This document shows positions 23,107-26,674 of a DNA stretch of 32,000 nt, piece after piece. Below the pieces are notes generated by a model, which made no database searches, had not been told where the DNA came from, and saw nothing but the letters and a program-made list of their open reading frames with translations. Source of the DNA: Geotalea uraniireducens Rf4 (GTDB taxonomy: Bacteria; Desulfobacterota; Desulfuromonadia; Geobacterales; Geobacteraceae); assembly GCF_000016745.1 (NCBI RefSeq), contig NC_009483.1, positions 600,001 through 632,000 on the forward strand, read 5' to 3'. The translations under genes were made by a program, and so were the position numbers. Position 1 is the first letter of the stretch. Every line of letters begins with the position of its first letter.

Positions 23107-25395
23107 TTACTTGCCGTTTTCTATGACGACCGGCTTCAGTCCCTGTTTTTCCAGCTTCGCCGCCTCGTTCATGGCTGCCTCACGTGTCGGGAAGCTGCCG
23201 GCGGTAAGCAGGGACGTTGGAACGGATACGGATATATTCTTCATGCTTAACTTTATGCCGAGGGCGGCAAGCCGCTCCAGTTCCTTTGCCGCATACTTCC
23301 GATTGACGTAAGACCCGGCATAGACGCTGTACTTTCCTGCTCCGCTTTTGATAATGAGTCCTTTGGCGTTGACGCTGCGCAGCTTGTCAAGCTCTTTCCG
23401 GGCCGACTCCCGATCTGGAAATTCCCCGATGTAGAGACCTAGCATCGGTTCCTTTTTCGTTGGGCCCTTTTTCACCACCGGCGACAGGCCGGCGCGTTGT
23501 ACTTTTTTCTTGGCATTCGCCAATGCCGATTTCACCGTATACTCTCCAACCTTAATCGTGTATTTCCCGGTTGCCGCAGCATTCTCCGCCTTGCCGGCAA
23601 AGACCGTCGCCTGCTCTCCAGCGACCATTCCGGCAGCTTCCTTTTCGCCTTCTTTCGTCTGGGCGCTCACCTTATCGGCAGAGTCCTTCCGGGAAGCCTT
23701 CACTTCTCCTTGCTCTTTTTCAGCTTTTGTCGTGATGCGGCCACCGTTTACCTGCATCTCACTGTCGGGCAGAGCGACCTTTCCGTCGCTGACTGGTGCG
23801 GCCGGCATATCCGTGCTTCCGGGCTTTTTGCTTTCCCCGGCGTCAGTGGACACGGCGCGCTCTGGAGCCGGTGTCGGCATCTTCTCATTCGCGAGATCTG
23901 CCGGATGTGACGTGTCGATATGAACGCCCAGGCGGTCGAGAAGTTTTCCCGTGTCTCGCCAGAGCTTTGTTACCGCATTTGCAAACGTTTCAACCGCATC
24001 CAGCTGTGCATTTCGGGCAGAAATCAGGTCGTTTTCCGCATTGAGAACGTCTTGAACCGTGGTCGTGCCTGCCTTGTGGTTCTTCCGGTACTCATCGAGG
24101 CGCTGCTCGGCGAATTGCAGAGACTTGTCGGCCATCTGCATCTGTAACCGTGCCGACAAAAGCGCCCGCATGTCCGCCTCGACATCGTTACGGATTTTCC
24201 ACGCAAGTGCCTTGACCTGGTTTTGCACCTGTTCTGCCCTGATTTTGCTCTTGCGATAATCGTTTATGGCGCTGGTATTGCCGAGCGGAACGCTGAATAG
24301 CATGCCGACCGACCAGAAACTGCCCGGGCGGTCTCCGATCTGTTGGAAGCTGTTGCCTATGCTGCCTCCGGTTCCGGTAAGACCTCCGCTGGCAGTGACG
24401 GAGAGGTCGGGGAGCGATTGATGCCTTGCGACCCGCTCCTGTAACTGGCTTGAAGTCAGGGTCAATTGCAGCTGCTTCAGGTCTGGCCGGAACTCCAACG
24501 CATCCTTCACCGCCTGATCTTCCGTTTCCTGCGGTTCGAGCCTGGACGGAGGATCGACGGGGATTAATTGAGTTTTCGGTTCCATGCCGATGAGGTAACG
24601 AAGGCTTGCCTCCTGGTCTCTGACGTTTCGTTCTGCTTCGACGAGGTCCTTCCGCCGCTGGGCAATGGCGAATTCCGCATTGGCTATTTCCATGTTTTGG
24701 AGCGGTGCCGGCTTTATCTGGTTCCTTATCTCGTCCAGGAAGTTCTGCGCCGAATTCAAGGCCGTCAGTCTCGACTCCAGGACCTGCCGTAACGCATAGA
24801 GATGATTGTATGAGGTGATGACTGCGAGAACGGTGTCGGAGATGACGAGACGTAATCGTTCCAGGGAGTCCTGATGTGCACTGGCGGCCAACGTGATGCT
24901 CACTTCTGTTGTCTCCTTGCCTGAATTTTTCAGAAGCGGCTGAGTAACGGTGATTCCCACTGACGACTGCCAATCTTTCGTGGATGTCCCGGAGTCTTCG
25001 ACTTCGGCGTTCGTGAAGCCGGTCTGGGTCGATGCGGCGATACTACCCCCTGTCGGGATATACTGAGTCAAACCGATGGAAGCAAGTCCGCTCGTGGTCT
25101 TGAAGAACGGGTCTCCCGGAACGGCCGACACTCCACCGGTGGCCGAGACACTGAAGAAGGGATTATAGAACCCCCTGCTCCTGGCAACGTCCGTCTCAGC
25201 CATTGAGGAATTGAGGGCCTCTACCCGCAAATCGATATTTTTACGGAGCGCCATCTCCACTGCGAATCCCCGCGAAAGGTTTACCTTTTCAGGAACAATG
25301 TCGCAGTGGCCTTTTCCGGCTGCGAGGAAGATAATTCCGAATACGATTGCCCTTAAGGTCTTGGGAACAGGGAGACCCGTTGCATGTTTGGCCAT
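23107..25395 (-). CDS. TolC-family outer membrane channel fused to C-terminal SPOR (peptidoglycan-binding) repeats
   Basis: Residues from about 40 to 500 show the two-repeat OEP/TolC pattern. A low-complexity linker of about 110 aa follows. After it come at least two SPOR-like units (YTIKVGEYTVKSALANAKKKVQRAGL...; LYIGEFPDRESARKELDKLRS...YSVYAGSYVNRKYAAKELERLAALG...; LLTAGSFPTREAAMNEAAKLEKQGL). GGAGGGG precedes ATG 25395. Confidence 0.8.
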   Translation of the reverse strand: MAKHATGLPVPKTLRAIVFGIIFLAAGKGHCDIVPEKVNLSRGFAVEMALRKNIDLRVEALNSSMAETDVARSRGFYNPFFSVSATGGVSAVPGDPFFKTTSGLASIGLTQYIPTGGSIAASTQTGFTNAEVEDSGTSTKDWQSSVGITVTQPLLKNSGKETTEVSITLAASAHQDSLERLRLVISDTVLAVITSYNHLYALRQVLESRLTALNSAQNFLDEIRNQIKPAPLQNMEIANAEFAIAQRRKDLVEAERNVRDQEASLRYLIGMEPKTQLIPVDPPSRLEPQETEDQAVKDALEFRPDLKQLQLTLTSSQLQERVARHQSLPDLSVTASGGLTGTGGSIGNSFQQIGDRPGSFWSVGMLFSVPLGNTSAINDYRKSKIRAEQVQNQVKALAWKIRNDVEADMRALLSARLQMQMADKSLQFAEQRLDEYRKNHKAGTTTVQDVLNAENDLISARNAQLDAVETFANAVTKLWRDTGKLLDRLGVHIDTSHPADLANEKMPTPAPERAVSTDAGESKKPGSTDMPAAPVSDGKVALPDSEMQVNGGRITTKAEKEQGEVKASRKDSADKVSAQTKEGEKEAAGMVAGEQATVFAGKAENAAATGKYTIKVGEYTVKSALANAKKKVQRAGLSPVVKKGPTKKEPMLGLYIGEFPDRESARKELDKLRSVNAKGLIIKSGAGKYSVYAGSYVNRKYAAKELERLAALGIKLSMKNISVSVPTSLLTAGSFPTREAAMNEAAKLEKQGLKPVVIENGK

Positions 25396-25516
25396 AAAAA
25401 ATCCCCTCCAAACCATAAATGGTCTAAAGGGGATTATATCAATTTAATAAGTTATATCAAATTTGCGCGTCGCCTTGTCACTAGAGTGAAGGCGTGTCAA
25501 GGTGCCTCCAGTAAGA

Positions 25517-26065
25517 TCAGTACTGGGAAATGGCGGTGATTTGGGCAGCTGTCAGGGATTTGAGGGAGCCCATGCCGCCTATGTTGTTGTTGATGGCGCT
25601 CTGGGTCGCAGAAGCGGACTTGCCGCGTTTTCCCTGGCCGTGACACCCGGCGCAGTACTGGGCGTAGAGTGCGGCGCCGTCAAGAGCCGGAGCTGGTGCC
25701 GGAGCTGGTGCCGGAGCTGGAGCTGGTGCTGGAGCTGGTGCTGGAGCAGGTGCTGGAGCAGGTGCTGGAGTCGGAGCAGGTTTCGGAGCCGGAGCCGGAG
25801 CAGGTGCCGGAGTCGGTTTCGGGGCCGGAGCCGGTACTGGCGCAGGAGTCGGCCTAGGGGTTCTGCGGCGCTCCCTCTCCTTCTTCTCCTTCTTCTCCTT
25901 CTCTTCCTTCTCCTTCTTCTCTTTCTCTTCCTTCTCCTTCTTCTCCTTCAGCACTTTCTGTATTTTGGTTGCGTAGTTGTCGTCTGCATAGCCGGAAGGG
26001 ATTACCGTTGCTTGTGCGAATGCCAGAGCCAGAAATAATACCGCCATTTTCATCGTTTTTGTCAT
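25517..26065 (-). CDS. Secreted monohaem class I c-type cytochrome on a KE-rich / (Pro-Ala)n tether
   Basis: Signal peptide MKMAVLFLALAFAQA. A Lys/Glu block of about 30 aa follows (KEKKEKEEKEKKEKEE...), then about 60 aa of PAPxP with a run of more than ten consecutive PA dipeptides. The C-terminal domain of about 55 aa has CAGCH and a candidate axial Met (GGMGS). AAGGAG lies 8 nt before the ATG. Confidence 0.85.
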   Translation of the reverse strand: MTKTMKMAVLFLALAFAQATVIPSGYADDNYATKIQKVLKEKKEKEEKEKKEKEEKEKKEKKERERRRTPRPTPAPVPAPAPKPTPAPAPAPAPKPAPTPAPAPAPAPAPAPAPAPAPAPAPAPAPALDGAALYAQYCAGCHGQGKRGKSASATQSAINNNIGGMGSLKSLTAAQITAISQY

Positions 26066-26282
26066 TTTTGTTACTCCTTGTTTTTTGGTTTTGTCATCTT
26101 TGAAACTTTGTTGCTGCTATGTACTTCCTGATGTTACTTTGCTCGTGATCTTGGTGATCAGTTTATGCTGCCTGTTTGCCCTCCAAGTGAATTCACGAGA
26201 CCGGATATCAATGCAATCCTGCCGATTCCATCTGCTTGTGTACCTCCTTTGAGTGATCTTCGTGTCGCAGCTCCCTGGGCAC

Positions 26283-26400
26283 AAAAAAAGCCGGGTCGCC
26301 GATATCAGGTGATATTCGGCGACCCGGCTGTCTTCATGAGACCCTATAGGCTTTCCGTCCCATCCTCACGGATGGTTTAGTATTATCGTTTTCCCTGTTT
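26283..26400 (-). promoter_or_regulatory. GEMM-I-like (cyclic dinucleotide) riboswitch unit 1 with intrinsic terminator, proximal to the cytochrome gene
   Basis: On the minus strand, AAACC-AUCC-GUGA-GGAU-GG-GACGGAAAGCC (26349-26378) resembles the P2 hairpin and junction of c-di-GMP-I aptamers. The terminator is AGCCGGGUCGCCGA...UCGGCGACCCGGCU plus U7 (26283-26329). Confidence 0.6.
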
Positions 26401-26486
26401 CCATGTGTTGCTGATCGTTACCCTAACGCAATACTGCCTTTGTGCACCTCCTTTGCGTGATCTTCGTGTCGCAGCTCCCTGGGCAC

Positions 26487-26604
26487 AAAAAAAGCCGGGT
26501 CGCCGATATCAGGTGATATTCGGCGACCCGGCTGTCTTCATGAGACCCTGTAGGCTTTCCGTCCCATCCTCGCGGATGGTTTAGTATTATCGTCTTCCCC
26601 GTTT
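26487..26604 (-). promoter_or_regulatory. GEMM-I-like riboswitch unit 2 with intrinsic terminator, distal copy
   Basis: Same core at 26553-26582 but with a GCGA loop (still GNRA). An identical terminator lies at 26487-26533. The offset from unit 1 is 204 nt. Confidence 0.6.
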
Positions 26605-26658
26605 CAATGCTTCTATGTGTCGGTGATGATCACCCTACCTCAAAAACACGCTCGGATA

Positions 26659-26674
26659 TGTGATTTTGATCACA
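26659..26674. promoter_or_regulatory. CRP-type palindrome TGTGA-N6-TCACA
   Basis: TGTGATTTTGATCACA is a perfect match to the CRP-family half-sites. It lies in the divergent region between the riboswitch/cytochrome transcript and yihY. A second palindrome, GGTGATgATCACC, is at 26622-26634. Confidence 0.4.

Follow-up and report, generated by a model that had tools for sequence, protein, structure and literature searches.

Two complete riboswitch units of the GEMM-I type, each made of an aptamer and a terminator, stand in series in the leader of a c-type cytochrome gene within the 32-kb stretch of DNA analyzed here (hereafter the window). This core reading is supported by Rfam matches, by folding and by a Pfam domain in the downstream gene product. 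We propose, with a probability of about 0.8, that the two units act as serial and independent transcriptional ON riboswitches of the GEMM-Ib subclass, which control the cytochrome gene and probably the gene of a TolC/SPOR protein as well. As in pseudo-cooperative tandems, each aptamer has an expression platform of its own; both units lie on one strand, and no ORF of at least 60 aa separates them. They are presumably carried by a single transcript, a view left in slight doubt by a copied -10-like hexamer located before the second unit.

Duplicated leader and downstream genes

On the minus strand, the leader contains a direct repeat with a period of 204 nt, in which positions 26236-26405 and 26440-26609 align without gaps over 170 nt at 96% identity. 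Extended to 217 columns, the alignment of the two units gives 92% identity and a single 8-nt indel, located in the 5' flank. A first-pass annotation, made from the sequence alone, had described a direct repeat of about 200 nt with an offset of 204 nt and roughly nine identical positions in ten, which agrees with these values; the single indel that it reported is also found, with a length of 8 nt and not 7. The minus-strand motif AAACC-AUCC-GNRA-GGAU-GG-GACGGAAAGCC that it ascribed to each unit is present in both, as is the difference that it saw between the hairpin loops, which are both of the GNRA type (GCGA in the distal unit, GUGA in the proximal one).

The same annotation had placed the units in the leader of a cytochrome c gene, and the product of the downstream ORF indeed bears a cytochrome domain scoring above the Pfam cut-off (PF13442, E-value 1.8e-7, 31.8 bits against 27). 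This ORF (25517-26065, minus strand) encodes a secreted monohaem c-type cytochrome of 182 aa, composed successively of a signal peptide, a stretch rich in Lys and Glu, a linker of Pro-Ala repeats and a class-I cytochrome c domain with the haem-binding motif CAGCH. Its orthologue on metagenome contig L125 shares this haem domain, with a linker that is longer. After a gap of 100 nt, and on the same strand, comes a gene (23107-25416) coding for a TolC-like outer-membrane efflux protein (PF02321, E-value 4e-44) fused to two SPOR domains (PF05036, E-value 5e-17). It is probably co-transcribed with the cytochrome gene as the second gene of an operon.

Family and fold of the aptamers

A comparison of the whole window with Rfam at gathering thresholds returned exactly two matches, both to RF01051 (c-di-GMP-I/GEMM-I) and both full-length (model positions 1-87). 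These matches, at 26315-26391 (46.7 bits, E-value 2.7e-6) and 26519-26595 (44.9 bits, E-value 7.4e-6), exceed the gathering score of 35 bits, so that the assignment to this family, which the first-pass annotation had proposed to check with the RF01051 covariance model, holds for both units. Aptamer 1, the distal one, which is transcribed first, was delimited at 26515-26591 on the minus strand, and aptamer 2, the proximal one, at 26311-26387 on the same strand. Under model R1, for which only aptamers having A at position 20 were used (from Geobacter, Geomonas, Geotalea and Desulfuromonadales), they score 100.4 and 99.9 bits, respectively.

The two aptamers share one architecture and are 97% identical, aptamer 2 having GUGA instead of GCGA in the hairpin loop and UAUA instead of UACA in an internal loop. 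The P1 helix (GAUA/UAUC) and the closing pairs C-G and U·G are followed by a six-pair hairpin capped by a GNRA loop, an AAAG junction and a short P2 arm; in aptamer 1, the P1a hairpin reads CCAUCC-GCGA-GGAUGG and P2 reads GCC..GGGUCU/AGAC-AG-CC-G-GGU. All helices of this fold, in which two hairpins are closed by P1 and joined by the conserved junction AAA...GAC-NN-AAAG, can form in both units. The structure of the subclass was evaluated on alignment A2, which comprises 37 aptamer sequences of close relatives: pairing is found in 93.7% of its cells, a proportion that drops to 32-44% in controls where the partners are displaced by 1-3 columns. Four base pairs vary on both sides, and compensatory changes affect both the first hairpin and P2.

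Every invariant position of the A-type subclass is retained in both units. The A that follows ACGG (26558 and 26354) and the C of the ...AG-C... segment (26531 and 26327) match the RF01051 consensus in the Rfam alignment, where the former stretch reads ACGC-A. We take these residues to be the counterparts of the ligand-intercalating A47 and of the ligand-contacting C92 of the Vc2 aptamer. The likeness to Vc2 of Vibrio cholerae, pointed out in the first-pass annotation, is borne out by a common fold and by the junction motif AAACC...GNRA...GGGACG-N-AAAGCC. The two nevertheless differ: Vc2 has G20, the closing pairs G-C/C-G and a long P2 bearing a tetraloop receptor; the window aptamers have A at the corresponding position, the closing pairs C-G and U·G, and a P2 that the Rfam alignment shows to be 12 nt shorter.

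The related family RF03167 (c-di-GMP-I-GGC), which belongs to the same clan and has a similarly short P2, was also considered. In E-value mode its bit scores (49.3 and 49.2) slightly exceed those of RF01051 on both units. This assignment was rejected because these scores lie below the RF03167 gathering score of 59 and because the base that follows the closing pair, G in its consensus (ACGC-G-AA), is A in both units. Its consensus also has G at position 20, where the window aptamers have A. A text search of the literature for the core sequence GGGACGGAAAGCC gave unrelated matches only, and this sequence is also absent from the text of PMC6456294.

Terminators and the predicted switch

Each aptamer is followed by an intrinsic terminator on the minus strand. 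Terminator 1 (26487-26532) comprises a hairpin (26494-26532) of 13 bp, a bulged A and 4 further bp closed by an ACCU loop, followed by seven U residues (26487-26493). Terminator 2 (26283-26328; hairpin 26290-26328, U7 26283-26289) is identical to it in sequence. The 13 pairs of the stem are rich in G+C. The GC-rich stem of 14 bp followed by U7 that had been annotated earlier is therefore right as to the tract of exactly seven U residues, and its stem is better described as 13+4 bp with a bulge. The riboswitch terminators escaped a consensus terminator scanner, which flagged the P1a hairpin instead, on the wrong strand; their bulged and extended stem falls outside the stem/loop rule of the scanner, and their identification rests on folding.

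Nine nucleotides that are paired in the aptamer, within the 3' strands of P2 and P1, recur in the 5' arm of the terminator of each unit (26531, 26530, 26526-26528 and 26515-26518 in unit 1; 26327, 26326, 26322-26324 and 26311-26314 in unit 2). The layout of a ligand-controlled terminator that had been read from the sequence is thus upheld, with the correction that the 5' arm of the stem does not merely abut the aptamer: nine paired nucleotides overlap. The minimum-energy fold of the whole units, at about -56.6 kcal/mol (z-scores of -6.0 and -6.4 against shuffled sequences), is the terminator. Since the terminator hairpin alone is far more stable (-33.9 kcal/mol) than the secondary structure of the aptamer (-14.3 kcal/mol), termination is the likely default state. 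In these folding models, aptamer and terminator are mutually exclusive and are arranged as in an ON switch that works by ligand-induced antitermination. ON polarity is likely to hold in vivo: experiments have demonstrated such a mechanism for the cGAMP riboswitch of pilM in Geobacter metallireducens (PMC9262584), and it was inferred and exploited for the pgcA/GSU1761 riboswitch of G. sulfurreducens (PMC6456294).

During transcription, each aptamer of the tandem would adopt its fold and capture a cyclic dinucleotide, of which 3',3'-cGAMP is the most likely. Ligand binding would hold the 3' strands of P2 and P1 within the aptamer, and the polymerase would read through. Without ligand, these nucleotides would instead form the 5' arm of the more stable terminator hairpin, which is followed by U7, and transcription would stop. 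A transcript would reach the cytochrome gene only after passing both checkpoints, and the output would be the product of two read-through probabilities. Multiplied read-through probabilities imply a lower leakage and a steeper, "pseudo-cooperative" or more digital response, and the two-unit leader is accordingly expected to respond more sharply than a single unit. By our own arithmetic, for two identical and independent switches, the range of ligand needed to go from 10% to 90% of output would be about 40-fold instead of 81-fold, and the leak would be squared. With the figures of the pilM model, which has a leak of 6% and a maximum of 80% (PMC9262584), one would expect a dynamic range of about 13-fold for one switch and of about 180-fold for two.

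Subclass and ligand

The base to which the literature ties specificity, and which marks the GEMM-Ib subclass, had not been flagged in the first-pass annotation. It is an A on the minus strand in both units, at 26585 in aptamer 1 and 26381 in aptamer 2, located three nucleotides 5' of AAACC and aligned to position 11 of the RF01051 model, where the consensus is G. This position is equivalent to G20 of Vc2 and to A14 of Gs1761. G20 of Vc2 reads one guanine of c-di-GMP, and A14 of Gs1761 pairs with the adenine of 3',3'-cGAMP (PMC6140456; PMC9481103). Judging from this base, both units are probably GEMM-Ib sensors of 3',3'-cGAMP. The downstream genes, which encode a secreted c-type cytochrome and a TolC/SPOR outer-membrane protein, fit the theme of electron transfer and cell surface that is typical of GEMM-Ib riboswitches.

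What had drawn attention earlier was another feature, the occurrence in both copies of ACGG in place of ACGC, together with CU in place of GC just 5' of AAACC. This combination had been regarded as unusual, and is in fact typical of the subclass, being invariant in 37/37 of its aptamers. Of the two roles suggested for it, compensation is borne out, C-G replacing G-C and U·G replacing C-G. A scan for aptamers with the ACGG version, carried out with one genome per species, covered at least 120 loci; among the matches listed, the base at position 20 and the next two are G+CC in 88 cases, A+CU in 35, A+CC in three and G+CU in two. As ACGG also occurs with CC in the 88 G-type aptamers among these matches, the flip alone does not set specificity. 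Again among the matches listed, ACGG is common in ordinary G-type aptamers of Desulfobacterota, A+CU is the standard form in Geobacter, Geomonas, Geotalea and other Desulfuromonadales, and the aptamers nearest to those of the window come from Geomonas, Geobacter and Geotalea.

The architecture and mechanism proposed here could also serve a different physiological ligand, either c-di-GMP or both c-di-GMP and cGAMP. The family model matched by both units is that of c-di-GMP-I, and cGAMP selectivity requires A at position 20 but is not ensured by it: the G20A variant of Vc2 and several natural GEMM-Ib RNAs bind both ligands, natural GEMM-Ib aptamers with A are often bispecific, and, in certain conditions, even Gs1761 shows a binding of c-di-GMP that is only about 3-fold weaker and that relies on a protonated adenine (PMC6140456). 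We nevertheless consider such a ligand unlikely. Both units combine A with U·G, a signature confined, among the matches listed, to Geobacteraceae and Desulfuromonadales, whereas G-type aptamers in the same set almost always have CC instead. Moreover, a selectivity of about 1200-fold for cGAMP was reported for the pgcA riboswitch, the characterized member of the same subclass, and in vivo its regulon follows GacA, the cGAMP synthase (PMC6456294).

Reality, age and retention of the tandem

A direct repeat of this kind can arise when an assembler duplicates a single riboswitch, and the short-read Logan contigs do break off within the repeat on either side, L001 ending at 26282 and L123 and L124 beginning at 26564. 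Each of these contigs, however, bears the copy-specific variants of its own side, and the two copies are distinct from each other at several positions as well as by the 8-nt indel. Two independent metagenome contigs, L125 (55 kb) and L126 (354 kb), were found by means of the TolC/SPOR protein (97% identity), and over 7.8 kb their identity to the window is 95.4%. They bear two units with a period of 205 nt, which score 96-100 bits under R1 and above the gathering score under RF01051, and which have copy-specific substitutions of their own. The hypothesis of an assembly artefact is effectively refuted and, as two independent contigs keep both units at this locus, the tandem is not a brand-new duplication either.

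Compared in the same frame, orthologous units of the two lineages are 93.7% and 97.1% identical, against 78-84% for paralogous units. The duplication is consequently older than the split between the lineages, and concerted evolution between the two copies, which was also considered, was rejected on the same grounds: orthologous copies are closer than paralogous ones and are not being homogenized. The duplicated cassette takes in the -10-like hexamer TAGGGT and the presumed start region at one end, and extends about 45 nt beyond the terminator at the other. Across the terminator and the ~45 nt beyond it, the copies are about 97% identical, against 50-57% for the post-aptamer segments in most other tandem loci. 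Since the copies are alike even outside their functional parts, the duplication is comparatively young.

This youth lends some weight to the idea that a single unit is functional and that the other is a neutral remnant of the tandem duplication which has not yet decayed, as does a mismatch in the terminator stem of unit 1 on L125. Yet both units have been kept in two lineages since a duplication that precedes their split, both terminators of the window are intact and identical, and every position that is invariant in the subclass is retained. In addition, all four substitutions that separate the aptamers from those of L125 and L126 are either confined to loops or compatible with pairing (C-G to U·G). 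This pattern is consistent with constraint on both copies, a weak test given the 1-3 changes per aptamer and a sister lineage that is only about 5% diverged. Altogether, we regard a neutral remnant as improbable, and two functional units in series remain the preferred reading.

Putative promoter region and remainder of the leader

Upstream of unit 1 and outside the duplicated segment lies a perfect palindrome, TGTGA-N6-TCACA (26659-26674), which corresponds to the operator consensus of the CRP/FNR type and constitutes a candidate activator site. It is the sole match in the 32-kb window, where 0.01 would be expected by chance. The orthologous locus of L125 has retained the palindrome, and a perfect copy is found at an equal distance upstream of A-type aptamers at two further loci (L002 and L025). 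A putative -10 hexamer, TAGGGT (26632-26637, minus strand), read from the sequence and also conserved in L125, begins 21 nt past the palindrome; no TTGACA-like -35 element was found at this putative promoter. With the center of the palindrome at about -41.5 and a start near 26625, the geometry suggests a class-II promoter activated by a CRP/FNR-type protein, and a separate regulator would thus probably gate the initiation of transcription. The palindrome could also serve the divergent gene of a BrkB-family protein.

Behind terminator 1, the duplicated post-terminator segment of unit 1 (26434-26486, minus strand) includes a box resembling a Shine-Dalgarno sequence, AAAGGAGGU, at 26446-26454. 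The leader between terminator 2 and the start codon (26066-26282, minus strand) holds the second such box (26242-26250) and an upstream ORF of eight codons (26071-26097), whose stop codon falls in the real Shine-Dalgarno region. The box is kept after the terminator in both units and in both lineages. A leader peptide translated from it was ruled out, an ORF of seven codons following the box in unit 2 and none in unit 1. A weak match to PrrB/RsmZ over the region between the units was likewise dismissed, with 17 bits, an E-value of 0.33 and about ten GGA motifs in the ~450-nt leader against about seven expected by chance. Over the 217 nt that separate terminator 2 from the start codon, a search for a third element gave no structure beyond chance (z = +1.0) and no Rfam match.

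The duplication also copied the -10-like hexamer and the start region, without the CRP/FNR-type site, from 26632-26637 to 26420-26425, as the alignment of the two units indicates. This candidate element, located on the minus strand just upstream of unit 2 with no adjoining activator palindrome, raises the possibility that the locus is more than a pair of serial switches. Unit 2 would then also be transcribed from an internal start that does not depend on the activator, so that two nested leaders would coexist, basal transcripts meeting one checkpoint and activator-induced transcripts meeting two. The boxes resembling Shine-Dalgarno sequences might have a function of their own, through the binding of a ribosome or of a protein. 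If all this were true, the internal start, the boxes and the activator site would make up a three-input gate on an extracellular cytochrome. We hold this extended scheme to be improbable, and serial switching on a single transcript remains the reading that we favor.

Relation to known tandem riboswitches

The first-pass annotation had considered the duplication of a whole unit, expression platform included, to be unusual. Among the matches listed, tandem A-type aptamers on the same strand occur at 8/31 other A-type loci, the periods ranging over 118-215 nt; RF01051, at its gathering score, recovered each of the eight, and most have a terminator after each aptamer. At least two of these tandem loci, L110 and L057, precede multihaem c-type cytochromes according to a crude and noisy scan of the first ORF, and the haem domain at L110 resembles that of the window. 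On a broader scale, no riboswitch class has more tandems than c-di-GMP-I, for which 347 doublets and 12 triplets were counted; these are described as pseudo-cooperative and as having multiple expression platforms (Sherlock et al. 2022, PMC9481103). G. sulfurreducens alone has 17 GEMM-I riboswitches, several of them in tandem (Hallberg et al. 2019, PMC6456294). The arrangement can therefore not be called unusual, and tandem GEMM-Ib switches with individual terminators before cytochrome genes are already well documented in Geobacter and its relatives.

Three known systems deserve comparison. First, the riboswitches of pilM and of Gs1761, the latter located upstream of pgcA (GSU1761), share with the window units the RF01051 family, A at the position of Vc2 G20, a short P2 arm, a terminator competing for the 3' strands of the aptamer, and the control of genes for extracellular cytochromes or surface components. 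The gene concerned is different, and the junction before the 3' strand of P1 has one A fewer in the window (GCCGAAUAUC) than in the subclass consensus (GCCGAAAUAUC). PgcA has a linker of Pro-rich repeats, as does the cytochrome of the window.

Second, the tandem of omcAHG (GSU2885-2882) also consists of two cGAMP-type units in series, each with its terminator, upstream of c-type cytochromes. RNA-seq revealed sequential attenuation in the omcAHG leader and, when the cGAMP synthase was deleted, no RNA was detectable by the second unit (PMC6456294). In comparison, the units of the window are much more alike, and their similarity reaches about 45 nt past the terminator as well as into the -10/start region. 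This greater and further-reaching similarity points to a younger duplication of a promoter-proximal cassette than that of omcAHG. The promoter of the window also differs in appearing to depend on an activator, as predicted from its CRP/FNR-type palindrome. Finally, the c-di-GMP-I tandems in general, including the triplet of Bacillus thuringiensis (PMC9481103), belong to the same family, have one platform per aptamer as here and, also like the window units, are predicted to give a pseudo-cooperative, more digital response; most of them are sensors of c-di-GMP with G at position 20, whereas the window units are of the A type.

Concluding remarks

General knowledge of GEMM-I riboswitches is unchanged by this locus. 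What it adds is a pair of genes to the predicted cGAMP regulon of Geobacter-like bacteria, namely those of a small secreted monohaem cytochrome with a Pro-Ala linker of variable length and of a TolC/SPOR protein. This regulon governs extracellular electron transfer. The young tandem also shows how tandem riboswitches originate, through the local duplication of a promoter-proximal cassette, and its near-identical pair of units may offer a natural test case for what is gained from a second, identical checkpoint.

Promoter Architecture and Candidate Co-Regulation

GEMM-I riboswitch promoters of the Geobacteraceae are repeatedly adjoined by a perfect palindrome of the CRP/FNR type, TGTGA-N6-TCACA. 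Upstream of unit 1, the distal riboswitch, a perfect match lies at 26659-26674; it is the sole site in the 32 kb of the window, for 0.01 expected by chance. Further perfect matches occur on the sister-lineage metagenome contig carrying the orthologous locus (L125:2655-2670), in Geobacter sp. OR-1 (L109:1458-1473), and, among the loci listed, at two others with related aptamers, L002 and L025. Inspection of the palindrome-linked promoters of the window, L002 and L025 revealed a -10-like hexamer 21-22 nt after the palindrome and no -35 hexamer. Recurrence of the palindrome beside GEMM-I promoters, while most other loci among those listed have plain TTGACA promoters, suggests that a CRP/FNR-family regulator co-controls a subset of the cGAMP regulon.

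A second copy of the -10-like hexamer, TAGGGT, together with the presumed start region, was brought by the duplication to a point immediately before unit 2, the proximal riboswitch; this copy lacks the activator palindrome. An internal promoter is possible at 26420-26425, before unit 2.

Leader and Coding Sequence of the Cytochrome Gene

Approximately 35 nt past the terminator of each unit lies a Shine-Dalgarno-like box, AAAGGAGGU (26446-26454 in unit 1 and 26242-26250 in unit 2), which both units and the sister lineage retain amid variable flanking sequence. A purine-rich GGAGG-like box also follows the first terminator at four other loci (L057, L068, L110 and L086). No plausible open reading frame was found after the box at either position in the window. 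The box may be a relic of a duplicated riboswitch-plus-RBS cassette, or may be functional.

Closer to the gene, an imperfect 32-nt direct repeat (26044-26107) doubles the sequence around the cytochrome start codon, thereby producing an upstream open reading frame of eight codons (26071-26097; MTKPKNKE). Its stop codon falls inside the real Shine-Dalgarno region, 5 nt upstream of the true ATG, and translational coupling to the cytochrome gene is conceivable from this arrangement.

The cytochrome itself comprises 182 aa in the window (25517-26065, minus strand) versus 212 aa in the sister lineage (L125:3265-3903). Signal peptide and haem domain show near or full identity between the two, and the part differing in length is a Lys/Glu-rich linker with Pro-Ala repeats. 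This low-complexity spacer is hypervariable. A similar Pro-Thr linker occurs in PgcA.

Other Multi-Aptamer Loci and Their Detection

The Geobacter sp. OR-1 locus (L109:1328-1741) is a mixed three-aptamer region: ~120 nt beyond an A-type (cGAMP-type) tandem pair lies a c-di-GMP-I aptamer of G type, scoring 63 bits, which is preceded by an apparent promoter of its own and another TGTGA-N6-TCACA palindrome. Geomonas propionica (L022:1976-2258) has a pair of variant aptamers, almost identical and spaced 206 nt apart, which follow an A-type RF01051 aptamer at a distance of ~740 nt. Rfam splits the pair between two variant families, both matches being just over the gathering score (RF03168 c-di-GMP-I-UAU, 66.8 versus 65.9; RF03167 c-di-GMP-I-GGC, 63.2 versus 59). 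This pair is a tandem of orphan-ligand variants.

Short-read assembly of three public sequencing runs (SRR9436596, SRR9436595 and SRR29904084) yielded Logan contigs L001, L123 and L124, all of which end inside the riboswitch repeat, at window positions 26282 (L001) and 26564 (L123 and L124). Since such assemblies break within the repeat, tandem riboswitches of this kind will be systematically under-counted in censuses based on short-read metagenome assemblies.
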